17,743 bases of DNA, from NCBI GenBank assembly GCA_965369655.1, contig CBDUQR010000051.1, positions 1-17,743 on the forward strand, in the 5' to 3' direction. The notes beneath the pieces are model-generated. The model saw nothing but the letters and a program-made list of their open reading frames with translations. It searched no databases and was not told the origin of the DNA. Positions 49 to 13,864 of the stretch are shown here, in pieces (within the stretch, counting starts at the first letter, position 1; each line of letters begins with the position of its first letter). Position numbers and translations under genes: made by a program. This DNA comes from an uncultured bacterium (GTDB taxonomy: Bacteria > Zixibacteria > MSB-5A5 > JAABVY01 > JAHJOQ01).

Positions 49-611
49 CTAGTCCATAGCAAACCCCTTTGGAATGAAATAAAATCTGTTATCAGCGAGG
101 TCGACGCTGAGAAGTGCAAGACCAAGGTTTCAAAAGAAAAGGGAATGAAGGAAAGCTTCTCTACAGCCCTGTCGATATGAACGCAGCTTTCAAAGAGCTT
201 CTCAAACCCATGGGCTGGAAGGAGAGCCGAGTTAGTTACTGGGTTACAAAGAGTGAGCAACTCATCAGAAAGACTCTTGCGCTATCTCCCGAGCAACAGA
301 AGATTGAAATCGAAACCGCTGGTGAAACCCCAATCTATAGCTACAATCAAACTGACTTTGTCAAAGACCGTGTAGCGATAGAAGTTCAATTCGGCAAGTA
401 TTCGTTCGTAGCGTATGATCTTTTCGTGAAGCATCTCGCGTTTTACATAGGCGATCATATTGATGTGGGCATTGAGATACTGCCCATGAAATCTCTTCAG
501 AGCAAGATGAGTTCAGGTCCGGCGCACTACGAAGGTGAACTCTATAATGTCGTCCGTCAGGGACGTGGGGTCCCGGCTGTTCCCCTTGTCATTGTTGGTA
601 TTGAGCCGTAG
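49..611 (+). pseudogene. BglII/BstYI-family type II restriction endonuclease, frameshifted near 150, native N-terminus apparently missing
   Basis: Frame 3 (150-611) gives GKLLYSPVDMN...YNQTDFVKDRVAIEVQFGKYSFVAYDLFVKH...EILPMKSLQSKMSSG, with the D...E-x-Q catalytic variant of this family. Frame 1 gives the matching upstream part LVHSKPLWNEIKSVISEVDAEKCKTKVSKEKGMK and then stops at 178-180. The halves join by a 1-nt deletion at about 149-151. Confidence 0.8.
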
Positions 612-635: not shown

Positions 636-2054
636 TCACTTCAGTGAAAACGCCTCCACGAGATTGAGGCCCCGCTTGATGACTTCGTATTGTGGGACAT
701 CAGTCGCCGAGATCAAATCGCCGTTCGAGTCAATAAACTCTATTCGCAAGTCATAGACTCCCGGTTCAAGCTCAAAATCCCCGACATAGATTCGACCCGG
801 CAAAAGCCTCGAACAGCGCAAATCAGCGGCCTCTGAAAAGTCAGTCACGACATCGATCGCGGCCTTCTTGAGCCACCCATCGAGGCCGCCGGTATCGACT
901 TTTTTCTTCGCCCTGTGGGCGAGAATGCCCTTTGCGACCGCACGTGCGATCGATCTGAAATAGATCATCGATTTCCGGGCGCGAAATATTTCTTCTGACA
1001 CCCGGTAGACATCCTCGATAAGTTGCAGCCTGCCAATTTCTCTGCTATCAGCATAGACCCTGATTTCGCGCACACTGGACGGCCTCTCGACAATTCGAGG
1101 TATCGAAAACTTGAAATAGAAATCCTCTCCAATGTCAATCGGCAGATGACCGTATTCGGACTCTTTGCCCTCCGAGTCGGTGTAGAGCACTTGCACGAGA
1201 TCAAGGTCTTTGTCGGTCCTGATCCTGAGATCGAACGCTTCTTTCACGGGCGACAACCCCGCGAGACCCACGACTGACAGGATCGCTTTCCCCTTACTCG
1301 GCTGGTAATTGACCTCCGGCATCGCGAAATCGTAGACTTCGGGCTGCGTTTGAAACGCTTTCACGAGATAGTCGTAGTCGATCCTTGCGTCATCCCAGGC
1401 TCCATCGGCTGCATAGAGTCGCATACTCAGATACCGCGCGAACGCATCGTTGTGGAATCGAACATCATCAAGCGCATACTCGATTTCGACTGCGGATGTG
1501 TCACTCTTTGCGCCGCGCTTCAACTCCGTGACAGCATCGCCATATTTCTGTTCGAGCAGTTCGATTTTCAGATTCGCTCGCTTGACCTCTACGAAAGCAT
1601 CGTCAAACTGGCCGAGCGTTGCGTAGTTCAGTGCTTTGATGAGATTCGTGTAGAGGATTTCGTAGTCCTCACCGGAGTATTCGAGGACATTGTCGTTGAG
1701 CAGCATCGATGCCGCCGCGCGCGAGATGCTTTTCCTGAACAGATCTTCGGAGGCATATTCAGCCTCAGTCAGATTCACGCTGCTCTGATCGAGACTCCCC
1801 GCATAGTGACGCGCCATCCCAACATCGATGAAGTAGAGCAACCTATCCTTGTCGCCGTACTTCCCCTTTTCATTCGCCGCCTCAATACCGGCAACTGCGG
1901 CGGCATAGTCACCGCTCTGGAGACTCGCGGTGATCGGCTCATAGAAACCAGTGCGCGTGCGGACCGATCCGCAGCCTCCGATGATCAGAAGCGCGATGAT
2001 CGCCGAAGCGATAAGACTCAGGTTGATCCGACAGGACTGCCGACGGTCTACCAC
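636..2054 (-). CDS. COG3014-like uncharacterised lipoprotein (helical/TPR-like N-terminus), LpoB-associated
   Basis: 472 aa; lipobox IIGG-C after a hydrophobic stretch; motifs LLNDNVLEYSGEDYE...KALNY and ADLRCSRLLP; GTG start overlaps the lpoB stop. Confidence 0.75.
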   Translation of the reverse strand: MVDRRQSCRINLSLIASAIIALLIIGGCGSVRTRTGFYEPITASLQSGDYAAAVAGIEAANEKGKYGDKDRLLYFIDVGMARHYAGSLDQSSVNLTEAEYASEDLFRKSISRAAASMLLNDNVLEYSGEDYEILYTNLIKALNYATLGQFDDAFVEVKRANLKIELLEQKYGDAVTELKRGAKSDTSAVEIEYALDDVRFHNDAFARYLSMRLYAADGAWDDARIDYDYLVKAFQTQPEVYDFAMPEVNYQPSKGKAILSVVGLAGLSPVKEAFDLRIRTDKDLDLVQVLYTDSEGKESEYGHLPIDIGEDFYFKFSIPRIVERPSSVREIRVYADSREIGRLQLIEDVYRVSEEIFRARKSMIYFRSIARAVAKGILAHRAKKKVDTGGLDGWLKKAAIDVVTDFSEAADLRCSRLLPGRIYVGDFELEPGVYDLRIEFIDSNGDLISATDVPQYEVIKRGLNLVEAFSLK

Positions 2055-2629
2055 GTAATGCTCTTTTTAATCTCTTTCGTTCCGATCCAGACTTTCTCGT
2101 TCGATTCGACATTGATAAGCTCAAGATCAGTCTGGTAGAACACAACTTTCTGGCTTTCAACCTGATCTGTGATCGTCTTGATTGAACCAAGGAGTATAAA
2201 ATCGGCGCCGGTTTCCTCGCGAAGTTTTTTGACTGTCTCTTCCGATGCCCAGTCGCGCTGATCCATGCGTTCTTCGCGGACATCCCCACGCTCAAGCTTG
2301 CTGCCTGTAAAACGAACCCGTCCGGAATTCAGAAGTTCGCGTTCGAAATCTTTGGTGAACACCTCGGTGTCGATATGCTCGGAGCTTTTGTTTCGGATTC
2401 TGCCGACTGTCACGACCGGTTTGTCTCCGGAAGCGCGGATGAAATCATCGAGCCAGATTCTCGACAGGCAATCGGAGATCATTTCCTCAGCGACGAGACG
2501 GGCATCGGTGTCGTTCCACCGACCCGACAAATCCTGCGTGGTGCCGGGATCGATCCGTGTGACCTGCCTGCTACTGCCGCATCCGACTAATAGAATCATT
2601 GCAAGCAGCAATAGTGTGAGCTTTTTCAT
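2048..2629 (-). CDS. lpoB: Penicillin-binding protein activator LpoB family lipoprotein
   Basis: ATG at 2629 after RBS AAGGGGAG; signal MKKLTLLLLAMILLVG-C; motifs DLSGRWNDTD, IRNKSSEHIDT, TGADFILLGSI, YQTDLELINVESNEKVWIG. Confidence 0.85.
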   Translation of the reverse strand: MKKLTLLLLAMILLVGCGSSRQVTRIDPGTTQDLSGRWNDTDARLVAEEMISDCLSRIWLDDFIRASGDKPVVTVGRIRNKSSEHIDTEVFTKDFERELLNSGRVRFTGSKLERGDVREERMDQRDWASEETVKKLREETGADFILLGSIKTITDQVESQKVVFYQTDLELINVESNEKVWIGTKEIKKSITW

Positions 2630-2769
2630 TGTTCTCCCCTTCCGTGGATAACAGAAATGTTGATTGTTTACTTCTTCGATAATTGTTACCGAGATTAACT
2701 CCACAGGTTTCGGTATTTCGCGGGAATTGTAGAATAGCAATTGTCAGAGTGGTAGAATATGATCGTCAT

Positions 2770-3294
2770 TCAAACATCATCTTTTATTGAAAAATCATAT
2801 ATTTCTTTTGCTTGCTGAAATGCCTCATCGAAATAGTTGCCAAGGTCCGGCTTCAATTCCTTGAGTTTAGCAACCAGTCTTTCTCCCCTGTAGTGATTCC
2901 TATAAAGATAGACGATGGTACTCAAAACCTCAAGATAACGTGGCTGCTTGGACACTAAGTCACGAAGTATAGGGTCTTCCTCAGAAACAAACGACCGAAC
3001 AATAGATTCTGTATTGCTTTCGCTTGTCTGTTTGAGTTCATATACGTAGGCGCCTTGCGAATCGCGACTCTCTTCTAAGAATCCGGTGTCCTCTGCCGAA
3101 GCCAAACTCAAATCATTGGCCAGCGTTGGGGAAAATACGCCGTAATGGTGAAATGTGAAGTCCTGGTTTAGTTCTATTCCAAGTTCCTGAAGAAGGTACA
3201 CCAGCTTGTGTAGTTTCTTGCGGGTTTCGATCTTTTCTCCCGCGATCTCAAAAATACCTTTAATACAGGCAAGCCTCTCAGAACAATCTAACAT
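2770..3294 (-). CDS. YwgA-family (COG3465-like) winged-helix protein, related to Panacea/SocA-type antitoxins
   Basis: 174 aa; RBS TAAGGAG; motifs RKKLHKLVYLLQ, FTFHHYGVFSPTLANDL and LEVLSTIVY; starts 29 nt after the HD gene stop. Confidence 0.7.
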   Translation of the reverse strand: MLDCSERLACIKGIFEIAGEKIETRKKLHKLVYLLQELGIELNQDFTFHHYGVFSPTLANDLSLASAEDTGFLEESRDSQGAYVYELKQTSESNTESIVRSFVSEEDPILRDLVSKQPRYLEVLSTIVYLYRNHYRGERLVAKLKELKPDLGNYFDEAFQQAKEIYDFSIKDDV

Positions 3295-3323
3295 GGCTAC
3301 TTCTCCTTACACCGCCTATCAGG

Positions 3324-4790
3324 TTACTCTACTTCCTCAGGAAAACAAATGAAGAATCGCTTCTCCTTGAGGTCTAAAATCGCTTTTGTTATGTCACTCT
3401 TCTCTCTCAAAGTACCATAGTGGACAATATCATCATCACCATCGCCTTTTCGACACCAGATTTCCTCCATCGGCTTCTTTTGTATCCAGAAATCGTAAAA
3501 GCTCTTGTACGCTTTGCGATCAGTTTCTATACGCACCAAGAAATATTTGGGGTCAAGCTCTTTCACTTTAAGGGCATTCGTCTTATCCGTTACAATGTTT
3601 TGAGTATCTTTTTTGGACAGTTCTTGATCTTCCGGTACTATTGATTTGAATACCTTCCTCGATATCAAATCGCAACAGAGTCTCCTCAAAATCCTGTCCT
3701 CGCCATGATCTGCCCAGTTACGAACTTGGGCAAGAAATGCAATATCGTCCATAGATAAGTATTCATGTATTGTCAATTCTCTGTTGAATGCAATCTTATA
3801 TAGGACATCCAAATCGCAATCAAGATTATCTCCATTTTTAAGAAGGTCTACAGCTCTCACAAGAATGTTGATCATCATGTTCTCAGCAGCAATCACCTTC
3901 TTGTGGAAGTATACGTTCCTATACAGGTATAGATTACCCAGGAGATATTCTTCCAGACAACTAAGACCGCGTCGAACATCAATGACGATTTTCTGCTCCT
4001 TGCCTTCGACTACTCTGCCGTCCTCATCCCGTCGGTCCACTTCTGCTATATCAAGGTTTCTGAATAACCAGTTTAGATCGAATCTGCCATAGTGCACACC
4101 AGTCATGAAAGAATCTCTAAGCATATAATCCAGTCTGTCTGCATCAAACTGCGAACTAACAATTGTACAAAGGAATCTTGGCGAAAAAGTACCAGCTAGC
4201 ATATTCTGGACATCGAACTTCAGGCGTTTATCGATACTATCCATGAAGTTACACAACTCGGTTTGTTTGAGGACGATTGCTTGGGACCAAGTTTCATGTG
4301 ACCGTTCTGCTGTCTTCAGATACTCAACCTGAGATATGAACCTTTCGAATAGATGACTAAATGGACCATGCCCAACATCGTGCAATAATGCAGCTAGCTT
4401 TACAACCAAACGAAGATAGTCATCGGACTTATATTTGTCAGATTCATCGAATCGCTTGAGCATCCTGCAAGCAAGATGATAAACACCAAGCGAATGGGTA
4501 AATCTACTGTGCTCCGCACCCGGGTACACTAAACTTGTGAATGGAAGCTGCGTAATTCGACGCAAGCGTTGCATGGGTGAAGAATCTAGAACATCCAGAA
4601 CCACATTGTCTGTTATCTCTATGATGTCATGTATTGGATCTCTGATATACTTCGTGGAGCTCCTAACTTGTTTGCGAACAGAATTCTGTAGTTTATCCCT
4701 AACCTCCTCATCAAGCTCCGAATACGCCAGATAATCTGAGGAAGATGTTTTCGATATTTTTCCCACAATATCTTCCAAGTCAGATAACAC
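3324..4790 (-). CDS. HD-domain phosphohydrolase, dNTP triphosphohydrolase (YwfO/SAMHD1, COG1078) type
   Basis: IRDPIH, MQRLRRITQL, YPGAEHSRFTHSLG, ALLHDVGHGPFSH, DADRLDYMLRDS and LYRNVYFHK are all present. The GTG start lacks an SD, so the start is uncertain. Confidence 0.9.
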   Translation of the reverse strand: MLSDLEDIVGKISKTSSSDYLAYSELDEEVRDKLQNSVRKQVRSSTKYIRDPIHDIIEITDNVVLDVLDSSPMQRLRRITQLPFTSLVYPGAEHSRFTHSLGVYHLACRMLKRFDESDKYKSDDYLRLVVKLAALLHDVGHGPFSHLFERFISQVEYLKTAERSHETWSQAIVLKQTELCNFMDSIDKRLKFDVQNMLAGTFSPRFLCTIVSSQFDADRLDYMLRDSFMTGVHYGRFDLNWLFRNLDIAEVDRRDEDGRVVEGKEQKIVIDVRRGLSCLEEYLLGNLYLYRNVYFHKKVIAAENMMINILVRAVDLLKNGDNLDCDLDVLYKIAFNRELTIHEYLSMDDIAFLAQVRNWADHGEDRILRRLCCDLISRKVFKSIVPEDQELSKKDTQNIVTDKTNALKVKELDPKYFLVRIETDRKAYKSFYDFWIQKKPMEEIWCRKGDGDDDIVHYGTLREKSDITKAILDLKEKRFFICFPEEVE

Positions 4791-4898
4791 TAATCAAATG
4801 AAAATACTATAACTAATTTCTATGTAAATACTGCAGCTACACATAGATTTTGTCAATCATTTTCGACAAATTACTTCCCAAAATGAGACCATCATCCT

Positions 4899-6284
4899 CT
4901 ACCTCATCCCCTTCCCCAGAAACTCTTCGACTTCGGGCAGACCGCCCTGGAGGATGATATACCCGTTGTGTGGTTCGCCTTCGGTGATTTCGCTGTTGAT
5001 CGGGTTCAACATGATCTCTTTGACCTTATCGAGATCGCTGGTTTGTCCCAACGCCCAGCAGAGCTTCATGTACGCGACTTCTGGAAGCATGTTGGCGGCT
5101 GGAATCACACCGGCATCGAGCAAATCACGGCCGGTATCATAGACATTCATCTGAACATATCCCCACAGCGTCTGGACAGTCATATAGACCGCGACACCTT
5201 TCCTGACAGCCTTGCGCAGCGGTTCATACAATGGCTTGTTGACATGACCGAGACCGGTTCCGGCTATCACAATGCCTCGATAGTCGTTGTCGACAAGCGA
5301 TTCGACCATATCGGGAAACATGTTCGGATAGTAATAGAGTATCGCGACTTTCTCCTCGAACGACGTATCGATCCTGACATTCGTGTCTTTCCGTCGGCGC
5401 GCAAAATCATCTCGCAGCGGAACGACCTTATCGGGCGTGCATGTCGCGATTGGAATGTCGCCAAGCGTCCTGAACGTGCTGCGATACGACGAGTGCATCT
5501 TGCGAACGCGAGTGCCGCGATGCAGCAGATTGTACTGGTCCGATGTTGGGCCGAACATGCAGACCATCACCTCGGCTATGTCGCCGCAGGCCGCAGCATG
5601 GGCCGCACATCTCAGATTGAATGCAGCATCAGATGACGGTCGATCCGACGATCTCTGTGATCCGACTAAGACTATCGGCACAGGCGAATCCTGCACCATG
5701 AAAGTCAGAATCGCTGCCGTGTGGTGCATCGTGTCGGTGCCGTGCCCGATGACTACTCCGTCGACGCCGTTTTCTATCTCGTGCTTGATGGCTTTCGCCG
5801 TCGCGATATACTGTTCCGGTCCCATGTTCTCTGAGAACACGCCATAGAGTTTCTCGGTCTTGAGATTGCAGATGTCGGCAAGTTCGGGAACCGCGCCGTA
5901 GAGTTCTCCCGGTGTGAATGCAGGTATGACTGCGCCGGTCCGGTAATCGAGCCGAGATGCAATTGTGCCGCCGGTGCCAAGCAGAGTGACATTTGGCTTG
6001 TCGGGACACGTTGGGAATTCAGATTCGGGAATCTTGTAGTGCGCCTCTTTGTAGCCGATTTCTTTTGCCGAGATTATGGAATCGACAGCGATACCGACAT
6101 TGTAGCCGTTGTGCATTTTCAAGACAAGATGTTTATCGTCGGCTGTTTCGGATCGCGGCAGGATCACACCGATAAACATGCCCTTGGTTGTCGACACCTC
6201 GACATCGGACCAGACTTTGACGCCGAGTTCCCTGAGCTTGCTCAGCGACGGTCCCTTGTATCCCTGATATGGATCATTACCCAA
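4899..6284 (-). CDS. gatD: Glu-tRNA(Gln) amidotransferase subunit D (asparaginase-like glutaminase)
   Basis: TTG start after GGAG; N-terminal extension of about 90 aa (LVLKMHNGYNVGI); GTGGTIASRLDYRTGAV, HGTDTM, GSQRSSDRPSSDA, RKMHSS, GTGLGHV and MLPEVAYMKLCWALG are GatD-type rather than plain AnsA. Confidence 0.88.
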   Translation of the reverse strand: MGNDPYQGYKGPSLSKLRELGVKVWSDVEVSTTKGMFIGVILPRSETADDKHLVLKMHNGYNVGIAVDSIISAKEIGYKEAHYKIPESEFPTCPDKPNVTLLGTGGTIASRLDYRTGAVIPAFTPGELYGAVPELADICNLKTEKLYGVFSENMGPEQYIATAKAIKHEIENGVDGVVIGHGTDTMHHTAAILTFMVQDSPVPIVLVGSQRSSDRPSSDAAFNLRCAAHAAACGDIAEVMVCMFGPTSDQYNLLHRGTRVRKMHSSYRSTFRTLGDIPIATCTPDKVVPLRDDFARRRKDTNVRIDTSFEEKVAILYYYPNMFPDMVESLVDNDYRGIVIAGTGLGHVNKPLYEPLRKAVRKGVAVYMTVQTLWGYVQMNVYDTGRDLLDAGVIPAANMLPEVAYMKLCWALGQTSDLDKVKEIMLNPINSEITEGEPHNGYIILQGGLPEVEEFLGKGMR

Positions 6285-6472: not shown

Positions 6473-7489
6473 TCAGAAGGAAAACTTCGCAGTGAAATAC
6501 TGATTGTCGTCAAACCACTCCGATTGTACCCAGGAGTAATCGAAACTGATATAGTTCTGACCCCATGCGTACTTCAGACCGGCGCCGAGAGACGCACCGT
6601 ACATGTACTCGTCCTGACTCGACGCGACATATCCGCCGCGCAGGAAGAACATGTCATCATACGAGTATTCCAGACCGCCTCGGAATTCATCCTCAGAGAA
6701 GTTGTTGGCCTGGAACGAGCCTGTAAAAACAGCCCTGTTGAGATCCTGGTTGATCGCATCCCACGACGCGCCAAACTGGATGAATGCCGGCAGTTCGAAT
6801 TCGGATGACTGAGAGCGGAAGTTCTTCGGCTTTGAGCCCGGCTCGGTTTCCGGAACATCAATGCTGACATTGAACCCTTCACCTTCGAACTTCATGTTCG
6901 GACCGAAGTTCTTCATCGCGACTCCAAACTTCAGACCCTGCCAGAGCGGATTGTACATGATTCCGACGTCAAACGACATCCCGTGAGCAGCCACCTGCTC
7001 GACCGCCTCGTTCACGTAGTTCGCAGTAATGCCGAACGACACACGATCAGTGAAAATGCGCGAATACGTGACGCCGATGATCGAAAAGGTCGGACTGAAC
7101 GTCTCACCGGTGCCAAGCGCCTCGTGGGTCGTGGTCTTGATGATCTCGCCGATCGAAATCACCTTGGCCTGAAACCCGATCGTTCCAAAATCCTCGAGGT
7201 TGGTCATGACACCAAAGTAGTTGATGTCGATACCAGCCATATACTCGAGGTGCGAGAACATCGCCTCGGTGCCATCGTGATGCGCTACTCCTGCTGGATT
7301 CCAGTAGAGCGCCTCAGCGCCGGACACGTCAGCGATATCTGCGCCTCCCATCGCAGTCGTTCTGCCTCCTATAGGTATGCGAAGTTCCTGAGCGCCCGCA
7401 GTACCGATGCGGTCACTGCTTCCAGCGTAAAGACAGGAAGCACCCAGAAGAACGCATACGAAGCAGATAATCACATATCTCGTCTTCAT
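6473..7489 (-). CDS. PorV/PorQ-family outer-membrane beta-barrel
   Basis: ATG 7489 after AGGAGG; signal peptide; GTAGAQELRIPIGGRTTAMG and ALYWNPAG motifs; alternating beta-strands; terminal Phe (AKFSF). Confidence 0.82.
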   Translation of the reverse strand: MKTRYVIICFVCVLLGASCLYAGSSDRIGTAGAQELRIPIGGRTTAMGGADIADVSGAEALYWNPAGVAHHDGTEAMFSHLEYMAGIDINYFGVMTNLEDFGTIGFQAKVISIGEIIKTTTHEALGTGETFSPTFSIIGVTYSRIFTDRVSFGITANYVNEAVEQVAAHGMSFDVGIMYNPLWQGLKFGVAMKNFGPNMKFEGEGFNVSIDVPETEPGSKPKNFRSQSSEFELPAFIQFGASWDAINQDLNRAVFTGSFQANNFSEDEFRGGLEYSYDDMFFLRGGYVASSQDEYMYGASLGAGLKYAWGQNYISFDYSWVQSEWFDDNQYFTAKFSF

Positions 7490-7502
7490 TGTCTTCCTCC
7501 TA

Positions 7503-10500
7503 TTAGTAGAAGTCAAGCTGCTCTACCTCGGTGAATACAGCCATCTTGCCATACTTCGTACCGATCTCCGATTCAGCCAGCCATACGTAAATGCCGGAAG
7601 CCACGTAGAGCGCGTTATCAGTTCTCACATCCCAGATCAACTCAGAACTCTCACCTGCCGGATGCACCAACGTACGGACATGATCTCCGGCAAGATTGAA
7701 AATCCTGATCGTCGTTTCGACACCAGGCGGCAACTGAGTGAACTTTATAGCTCTGCTGAACTGATCACCTTCCCAATCCGCGTAGTTGTAATACGGATTG
7801 GGAACTACCAGAATGTTCTCCATGGTCCTGGCAACAACCGTACCATCATCCTCACCGATTCTCGGAGCCGAGAAACGGAAGACATCGGCAGGAGTGTTCG
7901 CCTTGTTTGAGATGAAGAGCATCGAATCGCCTTTGGTCCAGCCCTCATGCACGCCGTCGGGAGCCCATCCGTAAATCCTGTAATCCCAATCGTGGCGGGA
8001 AATTGGATTTTCCGTATCATAGCCGTAATACTCTGGATCTCCATCGTGATACGAGTACGAGAAGAAGTCGTTGCCGTAGATATTGGCGTCAGTCCCGCTA
8101 ATATCCTTCGTGAGAAACATGAAGTAGTCGTCGTTGTACCAGCGATAGTCACCGTAGAAATCGTAGAACAGAGGCCAGAGACGAACATCATCGTCGGGAC
8201 TGTCAATATCATCTCCGAGGTCATAGATAGCGAATGGAATCGAGAACTTAAAGAGTTCTTCATCTGCTGCGTTCGCCCAATCATCCCATCCTGTATTATA
8301 TCCCCAGATTGTATCACCATTGTCGTCGAGATACCTGATGGTTGTATATTCATCGCCATCATACTCCATCACAGGTCCCGGAACGGTATCTCCCGGCCCC
8401 GCAAGGAACTTAACGACAAAATCGCGGAAATTGGCGTTGTTACCGGCGTTGCGTCCCCCCATGTAGGCCTGATCGCCGTAGGAACTGAATTCGCCTTCCT
8501 CGTCTGCATAGACTGCATCGACCTGTTTGAAGCCGGGGGCTGGTCCAACAGTCCGAACCATCATGCCGTTGACAATCGGATAGGTGAAATCACCTGACTG
8601 ATTCCCTTGGCTCTCAAGAACCATAACATTGCTGGTCAGATCTTTCAGATTCCAACTGAAATCCGTGTTAAAGTTGACTTCATAGTCATGGCCTGTCAAA
8701 GAATCCTGAATCAGATACTCAACTTCGACGTATCCATCAGAGGAACCTGCTACGCGAAGACCATCCCTCGCCAGAGTCGCACCTGAACCCCACGGGGACA
8801 CAGTAATCGGCCTGATCTTGCTTTCGAGATTATATGAAAGCAAACCGGCGAAGTTTGGCCCGAAGAAGACGGAATCCTCAGGATATACCTGTTGGGCATT
8901 GACGCTGTAAGACGTAACGCCGAAGTAATACGGACGATACGCTTCCAGCGGATTACCTGACTCCGGATCACGAGTGATGTTGATCTGGTACCGCGTTCCG
9001 CCGTTCGAGCCTTCCTGAGCAATCACTCGCTCTTTGGCAACATCTCCGTACAGCAGAGCGTAATCCCAGATTCGATCGGTTCTTGGTTTCACAAGAGTGT
9101 CGCAGTCCCATACTCCGTTCAGACTATCCCAATCGCAGTCAACATACTCATTGATTGCAGACTCGTATGCAGATTGCGACTGTCCAGCAGTGTAGTCATA
9201 CGTGGCAATCTTGGTCCAGGGACCGGACGCCGACTTGCCCATGTACACGTTGTAGCCCTCGAAAATGTAGAGCTGACCGAGTTTGGTGCGGAAATCCTCG
9301 AGGTAGTTGTCAGAACCCTCAGGATCATCCTCCCAAACCAACTCAACATAGTTCTCGAACCCACGTGCATAGATAGTAGGATTCGGCGGGGGCAGCGGGA
9401 TCACGAAATTCAGGTCATACACCACCTGAGCAGCACGGTCGATCTCTTTCAGCACCGTGATGCTGTTCAGCGGGGTGTCACCCTGAGCAGCCAGAGCGGC
9501 AGCAACTACCACCTGAGTGTCGCCCGGTTCCATCGTGAACGGTCCGGTTGTCATCATCCAGCGACGGTCAGCAGAAGCAGCATCAATCCAGCCCTCGCCT
9601 GTCACCGGATCTCCGGGAAGGAAGAACATGGTCTCCTCACCCGTCGTCGGATCGACCACTGGAGTGCCATTGCGATTGAGGCCTCTCATGTAATTGTAAC
9701 ACTCGATGGGCGTCTGCGGGTCCGTGCCGTTGATATACTTATTGAACGACGTCATGCCGAGCTGTTTGAAGTCCGGCACCGGTCCTGTCGGTAGGAATGC
9801 AGTGTCACCCGGCGACGCGATCAGCGGACCCTGGAAGAAGTCGAATCCGACCGCAGGTGCGGCGGCGCCATAGTCCGTATCGGTGCCATCATTATAGGCA
9901 TATCCAAGTGAAAGAGCTGTGTCGCAGCCCACGAAGTCGTCGCCGGCATCACCAACATCCGGATCCGCCCACAGTGAGATGAAGGTCGAATCGAGTGTGT
10001 TGTTACCCTTGTTGATGATCGTGTACTTCATGAAGATTACATTGTCGAGGGGACCCTTGGCTGCGAAGCCGAAGGTCGATTGCTGAATCTCGACTCCGAG
10101 CGTCCTGGTCTCCATATTCACATGACCTTCGGGAGAAGCGTCATTGTAAACAGACCAGCACATCTGGTTGCCGAGCATAGCTGGCACCCGTTCGCCATCG
10201 ACCCACTCGCCCGGGGCGCCATCGTCGTACGGCCAGTCGGCACGATCTCTGGAATCGTCATACGGGGTCTTGCCGTCGAGTTCGGTGCCATCACCGATTT
10301 TGTAGACTCTGAAGCTGCCCTTATCAGGCTGCGCCTCGCCGTCCAGCATCGGTCCCGGAACGAATTCGGCTGAATACTCCGCGATCGCGACGCGAATCTC
10401 ATCATTGACCTTCGCGCCGACCCAGATGCCTGCAGCATAGATAACGGTCCTGTTGTCCTTCTCCGAAGCGAACGGGAAGTAGAATCCGTCAATCTTGCCA

Positions 10501-10709
10501 ATGACTTCTGCGTCATCGTATCCGAAATTGCCGTTATTGTACACGACACAAAGAATGCTGTTGATCCACAGATGGGTTGATGTATCAAGGATCAGCGACA
10601 TTCCCGGACTGCCGTTGTACTTACCTCCCGAGTTCCAGTTTATTCCCCAGGCTACTGCCGTCATCACGAGCAGGATCACCAGGAAGATCACAAGTCGTTT
10701 TGCTATCAT
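7503..10709 (-). CDS. Large secreted surface protein with C-terminal T9SS type-A/FlgD-Ig-like sorting domain
   Basis: 1068 aa; RBS AGGAGG; signal peptide; N-domain (IYAAGIWVG, WADPDVG, GFDFFQGP, GPFTMEPGDTQ); PPP linker and FN3-like segment; C-terminal VVPNPY...IRIFNLAGDHVRTL...WD...VASGIY. Confidence 0.8.
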   Translation of the reverse strand: MIAKRLVIFLVILLVMTAVAWGINWNSGGKYNGSPGMSLILDTSTHLWINSILCVVYNNGNFGYDDAEVIGKIDGFYFPFASEKDNRTVIYAAGIWVGAKVNDEIRVAIAEYSAEFVPGPMLDGEAQPDKGSFRVYKIGDGTELDGKTPYDDSRDRADWPYDDGAPGEWVDGERVPAMLGNQMCWSVYNDASPEGHVNMETRTLGVEIQQSTFGFAAKGPLDNVIFMKYTIINKGNNTLDSTFISLWADPDVGDAGDDFVGCDTALSLGYAYNDGTDTDYGAAAPAVGFDFFQGPLIASPGDTAFLPTGPVPDFKQLGMTSFNKYINGTDPQTPIECYNYMRGLNRNGTPVVDPTTGEETMFFLPGDPVTGEGWIDAASADRRWMMTTGPFTMEPGDTQVVVAAALAAQGDTPLNSITVLKEIDRAAQVVYDLNFVIPLPPPNPTIYARGFENYVELVWEDDPEGSDNYLEDFRTKLGQLYIFEGYNVYMGKSASGPWTKIATYDYTAGQSQSAYESAINEYVDCDWDSLNGVWDCDTLVKPRTDRIWDYALLYGDVAKERVIAQEGSNGGTRYQINITRDPESGNPLEAYRPYYFGVTSYSVNAQQVYPEDSVFFGPNFAGLLSYNLESKIRPITVSPWGSGATLARDGLRVAGSSDGYVEVEYLIQDSLTGHDYEVNFNTDFSWNLKDLTSNVMVLESQGNQSGDFTYPIVNGMMVRTVGPAPGFKQVDAVYADEEGEFSSYGDQAYMGGRNAGNNANFRDFVVKFLAGPGDTVPGPVMEYDGDEYTTIRYLDDNGDTIWGYNTGWDDWANAADEELFKFSIPFAIYDLGDDIDSPDDDVRLWPLFYDFYGDYRWYNDDYFMFLTKDISGTDANIYGNDFFSYSYHDGDPEYYGYDTENPISRHDWDYRIYGWAPDGVHEGWTKGDSMLFISNKANTPADVFRFSAPRIGEDDGTVVARTMENILVVPNPYYNYADWEGDQFSRAIKFTQLPPGVETTIRIFNLAGDHVRTLVHPAGESSELIWDVRTDNALYVASGIYVWLAESEIGTKYGKMAVFTEVEQLDFY

Positions 10710-10738
10710 GGTTTCCTCCTATGTCGCATTTACCATTA

Positions 10739-13624
10739 TCAGAAACTCAGACGCAGACCGAAGCGAATCAGCCTCGGTATGTCATAATTGAGCGGCGTCT
10801 GCTGCTTCATCTGGTAAAGCTCTTCTCCTGTGTATCCAAACTCATTCGGTTCACTGTAGTTCCCGATGAACCCCTGGCCTGCCGGTGTGGCGAGCCAGCC
10901 GGTTTCATCAGGCTTGCCTGTGCCTTCGTAAACATCAAGTACATTGTCACGATTAAACACGTTGAGTACCCAGAGGTACGCATCGAAATTCAGATCGTAG
11001 AGAGTGAATGCCCGGCTCAACTTCAGATCGACTCGGTATGTCCAGGGACCATATCTCGAGTTAACCGTAGACAACGGGCTGGGTGAAACAGAGGCCAGCG
11101 TGACCTCATTGAACACCTTGGACGGCGTATATGGCGTCCCTGATCCGACGTTGACCACGACGTTGAGACCCATATTCTCAAGCGGGAATGCATCTCCCAA
11201 CTTTGGACCTTCACCCTTCGTGGAACGGATATCTATCACGCCCGTGAACTTGTGCCGTTGATCGAAATCGAGTGGCGACACATTGACCGGACGATCTGAG
11301 CCAACCCAGGCGATGTTGCTCTGCGTCGTTGCGTAGGAACCAGTACCGGAGGCGTAAGCAAGCGTATAGCTCAGATCGAGAGCTATGTTTCTCGTGCGGC
11401 GCATCTTGAGGTTTGTCTCCACGCCCTTGACCGTACCGTAGTCACGATTGCGGTATGTGGGATAACCCTTCGGCAGCGACGGCAATCTGAGAACTTCTGT
11501 CTGATTCCGCACATCCTTGTAGTATGCAGTAACATCCAGTCTGGTGTTCTCACCCAGGCGGTGAGTGAAACCGACCTCGTATGCCGTCGTTTCCTCCGGT
11601 TCGAGGTTTGGATTCCCGACCGGGTAGTAGTACGGCGCAACCTTAGTCATGTACTCCAGGTAGTCGTAGGAAACATACAAATACTGCAGTTCCGGACGCT
11701 GGAAGAACTTACCATACGAGAACCTGAAATGGGTTCTGTCTGACACGGGATAGGCCACACCAAGACGCGGTGAGATTTGCTTCTCAGCCTCGGCGTCTTC
11801 GAGATCATCCTCAGTCAACCGCTGACCTTCGAGGATTTCCTCATCGCTCGCATCAGGATCATAACCCTTCAGATCCGGATCCAGCGGGAAGTACTCGTTC
11901 CTGAGCATGAGCGTGTTCGCATTGAAATAATCGAATCTGAGTCCGGCGTTGACGATCAGACCTTCCCACTCGAACTTATCCTGGAAATACAGGGCGAATT
12001 CGTACGGGTTCTTGGCCGCGTTCCAGCCATCATCGAGCTCATCCTGGCCGGTGAAATCATACCCGTAGTTGTTGACATCTGACCAGGCCTGTGGGCTGAT
12101 GACCCATGTCGAGTCGGTCTTGTCCTCGTTGAATTCCCACTGGCGATAGACCTTGTGCGGGACAAGGTGATTGTAGTAGCGTAGGGTATGGCGCAGGTAT
12201 TCAGCGCCCACCTTGATCTCGTTAGACGCATTCACCTGGCTCGTCATGTCGAACTTTGCGCCATAGTAGGACGACTTACGGTGCAGATAATCATCGTACA
12301 CGTAGCTCTCGTCCTGTTCCGTGGTATCGATATCCCAGGGTCGGTAAAGACTTGTCTCTTCAAACCTGAGATTACCACCCGGACGACCGTAGGCAAACAG
12401 GTCATCCCATGCCACACCGTCGCCGCGTTCGCGCTCTGTCACGAAGTGGTTGGCGGAGACTTCGTAGAACGTGCTCTTGGAGACACTGTGCGTCAGCTTG
12501 AGATACATGGAGTTGTTCTTATCCTCATACCTCGGCATGTGATCCTGATTGAATATGTACGATCGGACATACTGCTGCCACTTGTCGATCGAACCGAGAA
12601 TGCCAAATCTTACGGTAGCCTGCGGCGCGACATCGTACCGCAGTTTGCCCTGCCAGGTGTAACCATCGAGGTGGTTGTTCGGCAGAATCCCGTCGGCGGT
12701 CGCTTTCGGATTCCTGTCAGCCTGCCAGCGTCTTTCTCCCGACAGGTAGAACGACAAATCCGAAAAGTCCGGCGCCAGTGGTCCGGAAACGTCGAAAGCA
12801 TAGATATTATAATCGTAGCTCTCGCCGTGGAAATTGTCCGTGACCACTTCGAAATTGCCGCTGTAGTTCTTCGCGCCTTCCTTCGTAGTCACATTGATAA
12901 TACCGGCGGAAACTTTGCCGTATTCGGCGTTGAAACCACCTGTGGTAATCTGAATTTCCTCGATGGCATTGTTGTTGATCGCAGTAGTGGAAATCCCTGT
13001 GAGCGGATCCTGCTGCGAGAAACCATCGACGTAGTAGGCAACATCCGACTGACGGCCACCACGAATGTTCATGGCGGGTGAGTTTGTCGCCTCACGTCCA
13101 CCTCGCTGCCGGGCGCCCGGGTTTTCACTGAATGCCACAACGCCTGAGTTCAACCCAACGACATCCTGATAACCACGCGTCGGAAGGTGCTGAATCTCCT
13201 CTTTGCTGACGATCGTCAGCGTAGCGGTCTGGTCCTGCTGAATCAGCGGACGCTCAGCCCTGACTACGACCACCTCGCCGGTCTCGACCGTGAGCGGTGT
13301 CAGATCGAAGTCGTAGATCGTGGTCAAATCGATCGACACACGAATGTTCTCGACCTCAATCGAACCATAACCGACCAGTTGGGCCTTTACTGTGTAGGTG
13401 CCGACAGGGACATTCAGGATAACGTACGCCCCGTCTGCATTCGTCAGCGATCCGATTGTCGTTCCTTCGATAGACACGGCAGCACCTGGGACCGGTCCGC
13501 CCGTTGTCTTGTCCTTGATCACTCCCGATATCTTGCCGGTAGTACCCCCAAGCAGTATCGAAGCGGAGAACATGACAACGACGAGGAACGCCATCGGGAT
13601 GATAAGCAGTTTGCTTTTGCTCAA
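10739..13624 (-). CDS. TonB-dependent receptor with N-terminal carboxypeptidase-regulatory-like domain
   Basis: GTTGKISG domain; plug NIRGGR...YYVDG and TGGFNAEYG...GIINVTTKEG; NAGLRFDYF, SPRLGVAYP, GNPNLEPEETTAYEVG; terminal LRLSF. Likely start TTG 13624 (GAGGAGGG 7 nt upstream); in-frame GTG/ATG at 13690/13687 is an alternative. Confidence 0.9.
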   Translation of the reverse strand: MSKSKLLIIPMAFLVVVMFSASILLGGTTGKISGVIKDKTTGGPVPGAAVSIEGTTIGSLTNADGAYVILNVPVGTYTVKAQLVGYGSIEVENIRVSIDLTTIYDFDLTPLTVETGEVVVVRAERPLIQQDQTATLTIVSKEEIQHLPTRGYQDVVGLNSGVVAFSENPGARQRGGREATNSPAMNIRGGRQSDVAYYVDGFSQQDPLTGISTTAINNNAIEEIQITTGGFNAEYGKVSAGIINVTTKEGAKNYSGNFEVVTDNFHGESYDYNIYAFDVSGPLAPDFSDLSFYLSGERRWQADRNPKATADGILPNNHLDGYTWQGKLRYDVAPQATVRFGILGSIDKWQQYVRSYIFNQDHMPRYEDKNNSMYLKLTHSVSKSTFYEVSANHFVTERERGDGVAWDDLFAYGRPGGNLRFEETSLYRPWDIDTTEQDESYVYDDYLHRKSSYYGAKFDMTSQVNASNEIKVGAEYLRHTLRYYNHLVPHKVYRQWEFNEDKTDSTWVISPQAWSDVNNYGYDFTGQDELDDGWNAAKNPYEFALYFQDKFEWEGLIVNAGLRFDYFNANTLMLRNEYFPLDPDLKGYDPDASDEEILEGQRLTEDDLEDAEAEKQISPRLGVAYPVSDRTHFRFSYGKFFQRPELQYLYVSYDYLEYMTKVAPYYYPVGNPNLEPEETTAYEVGFTHRLGENTRLDVTAYYKDVRNQTEVLRLPSLPKGYPTYRNRDYGTVKGVETNLKMRRTRNIALDLSYTLAYASGTGSYATTQSNIAWVGSDRPVNVSPLDFDQRHKFTGVIDIRSTKGEGPKLGDAFPLENMGLNVVVNVGSGTPYTPSKVFNEVTLASVSPSPLSTVNSRYGPWTYRVDLKLSRAFTLYDLNFDAYLWVLNVFNRDNVLDVYEGTGKPDETGWLATPAGQGFIGNYSEPNEFGYTGEELYQMKQQTPLNYDIPRLIRFGLRLSF

Positions 13625-13864
13625 GTCAATCCCTCCTCTTGAGTGTTTCTCAATCCTAATTCTGTAGCTTTTGGATTTACTGGTCATCACCTCCTCATGA
13701 TTCGTTAGAGTGAATAAGCTTTATTCTATCTTTCTATCCACATTATCGCACTGAGTATATGCAGACTGAGCGAAGAGTACAAGTTGCCGGTCGATGTTGA
13801 AAAATGTCAAGCCACTCCACAGCCAAGAGCCTGCAACACACAAAAATGCTCTTATCTGCAAACA

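Follow-up and report, generated by a model that had tools for sequence, protein, structure and literature searches.

A SAMHD1-type dNTP triphosphohydrolase gene paired with a YwgA-family gene in an uncultured Zixibacteria genome: a candidate defence or toxin-antitoxin-like module

In the genome of an uncultured bacterium of the Zixibacteria (GCA_965369655.1; 2.99 Mb in 100 contigs, here labelled G000), two adjacent genes that are much richer in AT than their neighbours raise the question of what a putative deoxynucleoside triphosphate (dNTP) triphosphohydrolase is doing beside a small protein of an unassigned family, and whether the two form a defence or toxin-antitoxin module, as a preliminary description of the locus had proposed. 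The pair lies on the complete 17,743-bp contig CBDUQR010000051.1, which we call the window, and this stretch is contained in three DNA runs of one study that are labelled marine sediment metagenome, one of them possibly its source; no RNA run is listed as containing it. Throughout, L-numbers denote the loci, and G-numbers other than G000 the genomes of relatives, that were compared in the analysis. The pair itself consists of the following elements.

3324..4790, minus strand: HD-domain dNTP triphosphohydrolase gene; open reading frame (ORF) with translation, 488 amino acids as the longest ORF, GTG start
3295..3323, minus strand: intergenic spacer of 29 nt; a GGAG ribosome-binding site lies a few nucleotides 5' of the ATG of the small gene
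2770..3294, minus strand: YwgA-family gene; translation of 174 amino acids, ATG start

These ORFs bear out the arrangement first described, namely two genes 29 nt apart between gatD and lpoB. The true start of the HD gene may lie a few codons downstream of the GTG, necessarily upstream of residue 48.

Identity of the two proteins

The 488-residue protein contains a Pfam HD domain (E 2.9e-10), and among solved structures it is closest to EF1143, a dNTPase of E. faecalis (2o6i/3irh/4lrl; E 2.4e-50 over residues 45-456), followed in the PDB by 2q14 (E 9e-41, residues 46-393), 2hek and 9mr6, with many SAMHD1 chains matching at about 1e-21. The homology extends past the HD core across the whole catalytic domain, and in printed alignments the motifs RF-H-SLGV, LLHD-GHGPFSH-FE and D-DR-DY-RD stand in register with EF1143 and SAMHD1. 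Both the metal ligands of the HD domain (H...HD...D) and the accessory catalytic histidines are present, and nine residues (H99, H137, D138, H141, H146, H165, D216, D218 and D221) are invariant in an alignment of 42 sequences, so that the intactness of the catalytic motifs and the identity as a dNTP triphosphohydrolase, both claimed beforehand, are upheld, the latter as a dNTPase of the SAMHD1/EF1143 type. By homology we assign the enzyme to the EF1143/SAMHD1 branch of dNTP triphosphohydrolases (COG1078), with its metal and catalytic motifs intact, and from the full-length similarity and these motifs it would be expected to hydrolyse dNTPs to deoxynucleosides and triphosphate. Models of Dgt-type dGTPases match only weakly, over a short N-terminal stretch of ~60-90 residues (PADLOC dGTPase, 31.4 bits), and the anti-phage Dgt-type dGTPase (NF041026) was rejected as an identification at 20.7 bits against a cut-off of 400.

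For the 174-residue protein no Pfam family was found. Its 79 homologues (E 3e-39 to 3.5e-14, the best 45-51% identical) include five that bear the JGI name "uncharacterized protein YwgA", and a profile search of 1.84 billion representatives returned 2243 clusters at E <= 0.001, nearly all of them of 150-185 amino acids. The family shares the conserved motifs R-K-K-L-H-K-L-V-Y-L-L-Q, Y-G-V-F-S-P and L-E-V-L-S-T-I-V-Y-L. We accordingly place the protein, by sequence similarity, in the family labelled YwgA (COG3465), and the JGI labels agree with the name that it had been given in the preliminary description. Its AlphaFold model (predicted local distance difference test score, pLDDT, 88.7) consists of a winged helix (residues 1-102) followed by a helical C-terminal domain.

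Comparisons of several kinds relate this protein to DarG. The PADLOC DarG model matches at positions 167-309 of 329 (E 8.8e-9), and the NCBIfam DarG model (NF048014) at positions 187-311 of 338, there with 25.5 bits against a cut-off of 250. The top Foldseek hit is 7yk3_D, which represents DarG in the complex of DarT and DarG from M. tuberculosis (probability 1.00, template modelling score 0.60; no match reaches E 0.001), and the same chain ranks first in a VIA search of 48,161 chains (Z 12.8, root-mean-square deviation 3.7 Å, 159 aligned residues), where it is the only match above Z 8, the others covering the winged helix alone at Z 7.2 or below. When the family was aligned by hhalign with nine DarG C-terminal domains of the same phylum, the probability was 96.1% (E 3.4e-9) and all three motifs were aligned; a sequence search of the PDB with the YwgA profile gave chance-level matches only (E 0.11 and 0.69). 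Because the PADLOC and NCBIfam models, Foldseek, VIA and hhalign all match, we identify the small protein, on profile and model comparison, as a stand-alone homologue of the toxin-binding C-terminal domain of DarG. It corresponds to the C-terminal half of the DarG model only and thus has no counterpart of the N-terminal macrodomain (ADP-ribosylglycohydrolase), and the adjoining gene encodes the HD enzyme in place of a cognate DarT. The DarG domain is said, going by the title of a 2023 study by Deep and colleagues (Structure 31:780), to neutralise DarT by binding it and mimicking nucleic acid. A YwgA-like domain also occurs in a PADLOC defence candidate (PDC), PDC-M19A, a model of 294 positions in which it is N-terminal and apparently fused to DUF488; positions 11-129 are matched by the small protein of the window and positions 150-284 by a DUF488 gene of G008.

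The partner had also been described as Panacea-like. The resemblance in motifs stands (K-L-x-K-L-x-Y, then Y-G), but membership of PF13274 does not: none of 39 family members matches that model at E up to 1, a search of the genome with it finds another gene (G000:C14) and nothing at the small protein, and the actual relative is the DarG C-terminal domain. A deeper kinship between YwgA and Panacea is nevertheless possible, as hhalign gives 43% for the family against 13 Panacea proteins (E 2.5e-4 over 99 N-terminal columns) and 72% for the DarG C-terminal domain against Panacea, and 13% of the members of the Atlas cluster at rank 17 carry PF13274.

Linkage, genomic setting and distribution

The linkage between YwgA and HD genes spans many phyla and is tight in both directions. 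On genome contigs (10 loci with at least seven phylum labels) 9 of the 10 have the HD gene immediately upstream and in the same orientation, one of these (L014) having an internally deleted HD gene, and the tenth locus is at a contig edge. Metagenome contigs, some of which are duplicates of one sequence, show the HD gene directly upstream in 18 of 23 loci; the others comprise three that start <500 nt from a contig end, L060, which has an NFACT gene instead, and L067, which is a 92-residue remnant. In a sample of 201 genomes from the phylum, 30 have a match to the YwgA profile and 37 have one to the HD profile (E <= 1e-10). At the strongest HD loci (E <= 1e-100) a partner lies within 200 nt in 13 of 14, with coordinates read by eye, the exception being a truncated HD gene with an in-frame stop in G084, and a further 18 HD loci between 1e-100 and 1e-45 include 12 that adjoin a YwgA-like or DarG-C-terminal-like gene, one of these partners being detected by the DarG model only, and one at a contig edge. 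The order is reversed, with the YwgA-like gene first, in distant variants from six genomes (G026, G114, G186, G061, G073:C54 and G136). The linkage across these genome, metagenome and phylum samples supports the conserved two-gene module that had been suspected from the window.

Other properties of the pair can be set beside this linkage. Of 19 related loci, 11 have the two reading frames overlapping, by 1-14 nt. Over 171 pairs, the pairwise identities of HD and YwgA are correlated (r 0.76), a value that kinship alone could yield. No fused HD-YwgA form was found among 686 candidates in a search for longer proteins, which is weak evidence. In G026 (L027:1959-3950) both genes share a frame with one stop codon between them, and a "671-aa open frame" considered there as a fusion was rejected as two in-frame genes split by that stop. 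Many of the distant HD-linked partners are fitted better by the DarG C-terminal model (E ~1e-16) than by the YwgA profile. At L014:1163-2367 and L052:605-1809 the middle of the HD gene is lost (window residues ~112-339 are unmatched), leaving a 148-residue ORF beside an intact YwgA-like gene; judging from these sequences, the enzyme has decayed and the partner has been kept.

A computed complex of the two proteins has weak support. Its interface score (ipSAE) is 0.59 (runs 0.51, 0.59 and 0.62) compared with 0.00 for the best of three controls, the runs share at least 70% of their contacts, and the partner pLDDT is at least 73. The mark used for this score is reached by 116 of 157 solved complexes and by 2 of 215 mismatched pairs, and values of 0.60 or less come from just 18 of the 157 solved complexes, plus both mismatches.

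The composition of the pair and the place it occupies bear on its origin, and here the flanking elements are needed.

4899..6284, minus strand: gatD-like gene, upstream flank, with GatD_N and asparaginase N and C domains
4791..4898, minus strand: upstream intergenic region, AT-rich (GC 0.29), with a promoter-like site and an inverted repeat
2630..2769, minus strand: downstream intergenic region, ahead of the likely lpoB ATG (2629)
2048..2740, minus strand: LpoB lipoprotein gene, downstream flank, likely ATG at 2629

The AT-richness of the pair is far beyond chance, since only 10 of 5620 equal-sized windows of the genome are as AT-rich as the 2021-bp pair stretch (GC 0.418 versus 0.518 for the genome, z = -4.4). 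By gene, the GC content is 0.413 for HD and 0.425 for YwgA, compared with 0.539 for gatD and 0.507 for lpoB, and at third codon positions it is 0.43 in both pair genes versus 0.60-0.66 in six neighbouring genes. The line counts from which the contrast had first been noticed are exact (21/60 at 3721-3780 and 36/60 at 5581-5640), and the pair is compositionally foreign, as had been supposed. The same is seen elsewhere: of 11 other loci, 10 have a pair whose AT content exceeds that of the flanking DNA, by 4 to 23 points, and only L019 departs from this. The foreign signature thus persists in hosts that belong to many phyla.

In the upstream region, the promoter-like site TTTACA-16-TATTTT (4828 to 4801) is a consensus match only, and such sites occur without excess (6 found versus a mean of 5.5 in shuffles). 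It is overlapped by a 7-nt perfect inverted repeat, TCTATGT N15 ACATAGA (4819-4825 / 4841-4847), with a CTGCAG palindrome at its centre; the stretch 4819-4847 could be an operator, although it is short and the evidence weak. A promoter and terminator scan, which included 2630..2769, found no intrinsic terminator on the minus strand, and Rfam and tRNA scans of the window returned no features.

Whether the pair is accessory or core can be judged from its relatives. The HD gene is found in 7 of 41 of them; G001, which is of the same genus and 94% complete, yielded no match. In the family the backbone runs unk1068-unk347-gatD-slot-lpoB-unk472, and gatD is kept at 83-92% identity in four family relatives and, in G005, as a 107-residue contig-edge fragment (79%). 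What follows gatD varies. In G003, a genome of the same family, the slot (L021:3002-4369) holds another, AT-richer hypothetical gene of 455 amino acids (GC 0.46-0.48 versus 0.51-0.55), for which no Pfam or PADLOC match was found and which resembles unnamed Bacillota and Pseudomonadota clusters in the Atlas. After gatD, G001 carries genes for DUF6125, rhodanese and MauE, and G002 yet others; G004, also of this family, has the order gatD-HD-YwgA-EamA, with the pair at the same site as in the window. Relatives with gatD directly beside lpoB, which the preliminary description had suggested looking for, did not turn up in any genome examined, and the junction behaves as a variable cargo slot.

The relation between the window and G004 is informative about age. 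Their identity is 45% for HD and 40% for YwgA, compared with 83% for gatD and 77% for LpoB, and the window enzyme, placed among 42 HD proteins by an LG+G4 tree, shares a six-row clade (SH-like approximate likelihood ratio test 97) with three metagenome proteins and the copies of G004 and G008, whose rows were assigned by sequence identity; its nearest neighbour in the tree is 50% identical. A simple recent insertion was therefore rejected: the site is the same in G004 and the HD genes form one clade, yet they are 45% identical where gatD is 83%. Of the earlier suggestion of horizontal acquisition, the foreign composition stands, but a recent acquisition would be too simple a view. The pattern is compatible either with a pair that has long been resident, evolves fast and has been lost repeatedly, or with a hotspot in which alleles are replaced. 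Within the lineage ~15% of genomes have the pair, which is patchy in its distribution, evolves fast and occupies a variable slot.

Further observations concern the surroundings in the window. The GatD_N plus asparaginase architecture of the 4899-6284 gene is, we presume, that of archaeal GatD, and this bacterium also has TonB-dependent receptors and LpoB. At 6473-13690 on the minus strand, proteins of 347 and 1068 amino acids without a Pfam family adjoin a TonB-dependent receptor of the CarboxypepD_reg type, and both are conserved and syntenic among family relatives.

As to the wider neighbourhood, 23 distinct pair loci were examined by Pfam and/or PADLOC, as a description without a background control and not as an enrichment analysis. 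A defence- or mobility-type neighbour was present at 10 of them.

Window: probable remnant of a BglII-type restriction endonuclease, 2.2 kb away
L012: methyltransferase and MjaI
L013:1-12492 (Bacillota-labelled metagenome-assembled genome): Wadjet JetC (5e-96), NERD-UvrD helicase (DRT-associated model, 1e-56) and PDC-M26A-like AAA protein (2e-48)
L014 and L052: Uma2/PDC-S03
L017: AbiEii, weak
L019: PDC-S36 and a DDE transposase
L025 (G008): DUF488/PDC-M45B
L055: resolvase
L059: resolvase and AEP-TOTE
L062: STAND-type nucleoside triphosphatase

By its annotated genes, L013 is a clear defence island around the pair. In G008 the DUF488 gene (L025:5337-5876) is divergent beside the HD-YwgA pair and matches PDC-M45B at 9e-40. 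The BglII-type ORF of the window (114-611, plus strand) is a type II restriction endonuclease (Pfam 1.2e-27, PADLOC REase_II 4.8e-76) that covers profile positions 45-203 of 203 and has several stops upstream in frame; it is probably 5'-truncated or frameshifted, and no methylase is visible in the window. Four loci (L011, L012, L020 and L048) share a recurrent context, in which a MoxR AAA+ gene is followed by Asparaginase_2 or an MjaI restriction-modification pair, a small ORF, DUF58/VWA, HD and YwgA, and this suggests that the pair is stably resident beside a MoxR-DUF58 operon in one subclade. The single viral relative of the small protein, L044:1-528, lies at the very start of a 42-kb contig and matches the DarG model at 1e-8; no HD gene was found in that record, which is 64% complete and has the relative at its edge.

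What the pair may do

We favour, at roughly even chances, the reading that the dNTPase is potentially toxic, that the small protein keeps it in check by binding to it, and that the two form an accessory defence or toxin-antitoxin-like module. For it speak the identities of the two proteins, their linkage, the weakly supported complex, the accessory and mobile character of the pair and the precedent of Clover, in which a partner gene restrains a dNTPase effector (PMC12265719). HD-YwgA would then be an accessory two-gene operon, with the dNTPase encoded by the first gene and the YwgA-family protein by the second. The small protein would bind the enzyme directly and hold it in check, as the DarG C-terminal domain does DarT; if it were lost, titrated or displaced, for example on phage infection or stress, the freed dNTPase would deplete the cell of dNTPs and thereby halt the replication of both phage and cellular DNA. 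We infer such a halt by analogy with SAMHD1, bacterial dGTPases and Clover, and defence by dNTP depletion is discussed for enzymes of this kind (PMC12265719; PMC13519002). The defence or type II toxin-antitoxin role is put forward as a proposal; of its elements, neutralisation by binding has the weakly supported computed complex behind it.

A number of points weigh against this reading. The toxicity, binding and phage protection that it invokes are predictions, and scores in the range of the computed complex are mistaken in the majority of cases, except where an interaction was already probable. Five of the 18 mid-range HD loci have no detectable partner, and a relative of the small protein occurs on 1 of ~2.9 million viral contigs. 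At 13 of the 23 loci there is no defence or mobility neighbour, and because there was no background control, enrichment near defence genes is not established; the picture that the preliminary description had asked about is mixed. The MoxR-DUF58-HD-YwgA context at four loci resembles ordinary chromosomal residence, and the same-site pair in G004 together with the HD clade of G000, G004 and G008 fits long vertical residence. In B. subtilis, ywfO-ywgA is presumably a core gene pair. For ywfO itself, co-evolution with polC is listed (PMC3814617), and Syn3.0, a minimal genome, still contains a YwfO-like gene (PMC4993169); both point to housekeeping.

The rival that survives best, which we hold to be clearly the less probable but a serious contender, is accordingly a housekeeping enzyme of the dNTP pool that the YwgA protein tunes, by activating it, targeting it or sensing a signal, in the service of replication fidelity or of stationary-phase dNTP control. 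Regulation of dNTP pools by EF1143-type enzymes (PMC3190883) speaks for it, as do the ywfO and Syn3.0 data, the stable MoxR-DUF58 context, the loci without defence neighbours and the single clade of HD genes. A core function sits poorly, however, with a pair that is present in just 30 to 37 of 201 phylum genomes and missing from G001, that is persistently AT-rich across hosts of many phyla and that has diverged to 45% identity from the G004 copy while gatD stands at 83%; moreover, the sole characterised relative of the partner is an antitoxin domain.

One could also imagine the small protein as a mere winged-helix transcription factor that autoregulates the operon without touching the enzyme, since residues 1-102 match MarR, PadR and other DNA-binding winged-helix proteins at Z 5-7 and an inverted repeat overlaps the promoter-like site. 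We think this improbable. The match to the DarG C-terminal domain takes in the whole protein beyond the winged helix, a plain repressor is unlikely to stay so strictly with a single enzyme family in different phyla and whichever gene comes first, the computed complex, weakly supported as it is, scores far from its controls, and the inverted repeat is short. Least credible of all, and very unlikely in our judgement, is a canonical Panacea (PanA/SocA, PF13274) toxin-antitoxin pair with an HD toxin, for which the motif resemblance, the similarity over some 100 N-terminal columns, the rank-17 cluster and the DarG-Panacea alignment can be cited, but which runs against the missing PF13274 matches, the genome search that leads to C14 instead of the pair and, in the main text and two supplements of the Panacea paper, the lack of any mention of YwgA, COG3465, COG1078 or PF01966.

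If a protein inhibitor is the correct reading, a wider proposal can be made, to which we commit ourselves only tentatively: YwgA proteins may be free-standing members of an antitoxin superfamily, similar to the DarG C-terminal domain and Panacea, that are dedicated to SAMHD1-type dNTPases and together make up a large unrecognised class of abortive-infection or toxin-antitoxin systems acting by nucleotide depletion. Neutralisation would perhaps proceed by nucleic-acid mimicry in the regulatory groove of the enzyme, in analogy to DarG and DarT, and orphan YwgA-like phage genes such as L044 could be anti-defence decoys. If true, the class spans more than 2000 sequence clusters, ~15% of the genomes of the phylum and, presumably, B. 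subtilis ywfO-ywgA, which we take to be where the pair is already visible in annotation. We found no paper on the function of YwgA, COG3465 or the HD-antitoxin pair in the literature covered, which left out subscription sources, and what appears to be new is the DarG-C-terminal-domain identity of YwgA and its strict pairing with SAMHD1-type enzymes. The depletion of dNTPs is an antiviral strategy common to animals (SAMHD1) and bacteria (dGTPases, Clover), and how cells protect themselves from dNTP-depleting enzymes is an active question, to which the pairing suggests a protein-inhibitor solution built from the domain that DarG uses on DarT. It gives a testable function to a widespread unassigned family, YwgA/COG3465, and brings YwgA together with the DarG C-terminal domain, and possibly with Panacea, as neutralising domains of a single family.

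Comparison with known systems

Single-gene Dgt-type dGTPases are likewise HD-fold nucleotide-depleting enzymes with a weak N-terminal profile match to the window enzyme, which differs in belonging to the EF1143/SAMHD1 subfamily and in having an obligate partner (20.7 versus 400 bits for the Dgt-type model). With EF1143 and SAMHD1 the window enzyme shares homology over its full length and identical metal and catalytic motifs, but those two are controlled by nucleotides at allosteric sites, and we know of no protein partner for either. Clover, an anti-phage system composed of the dNTPase CloA and the Pol-beta-type nucleotidyltransferase CloB, resembles the pair in that a dNTP-depleting effector is restrained by the product of a neighbouring gene (PMC12265719). 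The YwgA partner, by contrast, would be a protein inhibitor with no small-molecule signal; it is a winged helix plus a helical domain without a nucleotidyltransferase match, and this comparison is made on the family of the partner alone. Panacea systems have similar N-terminal winged-helix motifs, with a weak profile-profile signal, and pair one antitoxin fold with different toxins, whereas YwgA has no family-level match to them and its C-terminal domain is unaligned.

The B. subtilis pair ywfO-ywgA appears to comprise the same two families (COG1078 and COG3465) in the same adjacency; it differs in its presumed core status, the pair of the window being accessory and AT-rich. From DarTG the HD-YwgA pair is set apart by the absence of a macrodomain and of DarT, by an enzyme that is an HD dNTPase and not a DNA ADP-ribosyltransferase, and by a partner that is free-standing (174 amino acids) and remains at a tenth or so of the NCBIfam DarG cut-off. 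It is nevertheless to DarTG that the partner points most directly: homology to the DarG C-terminal domain (7yk3) extends along the entire small protein, the order of enzyme first and binder second is presumably also that of darT-darG, and neutralisation by direct binding would be common to both.

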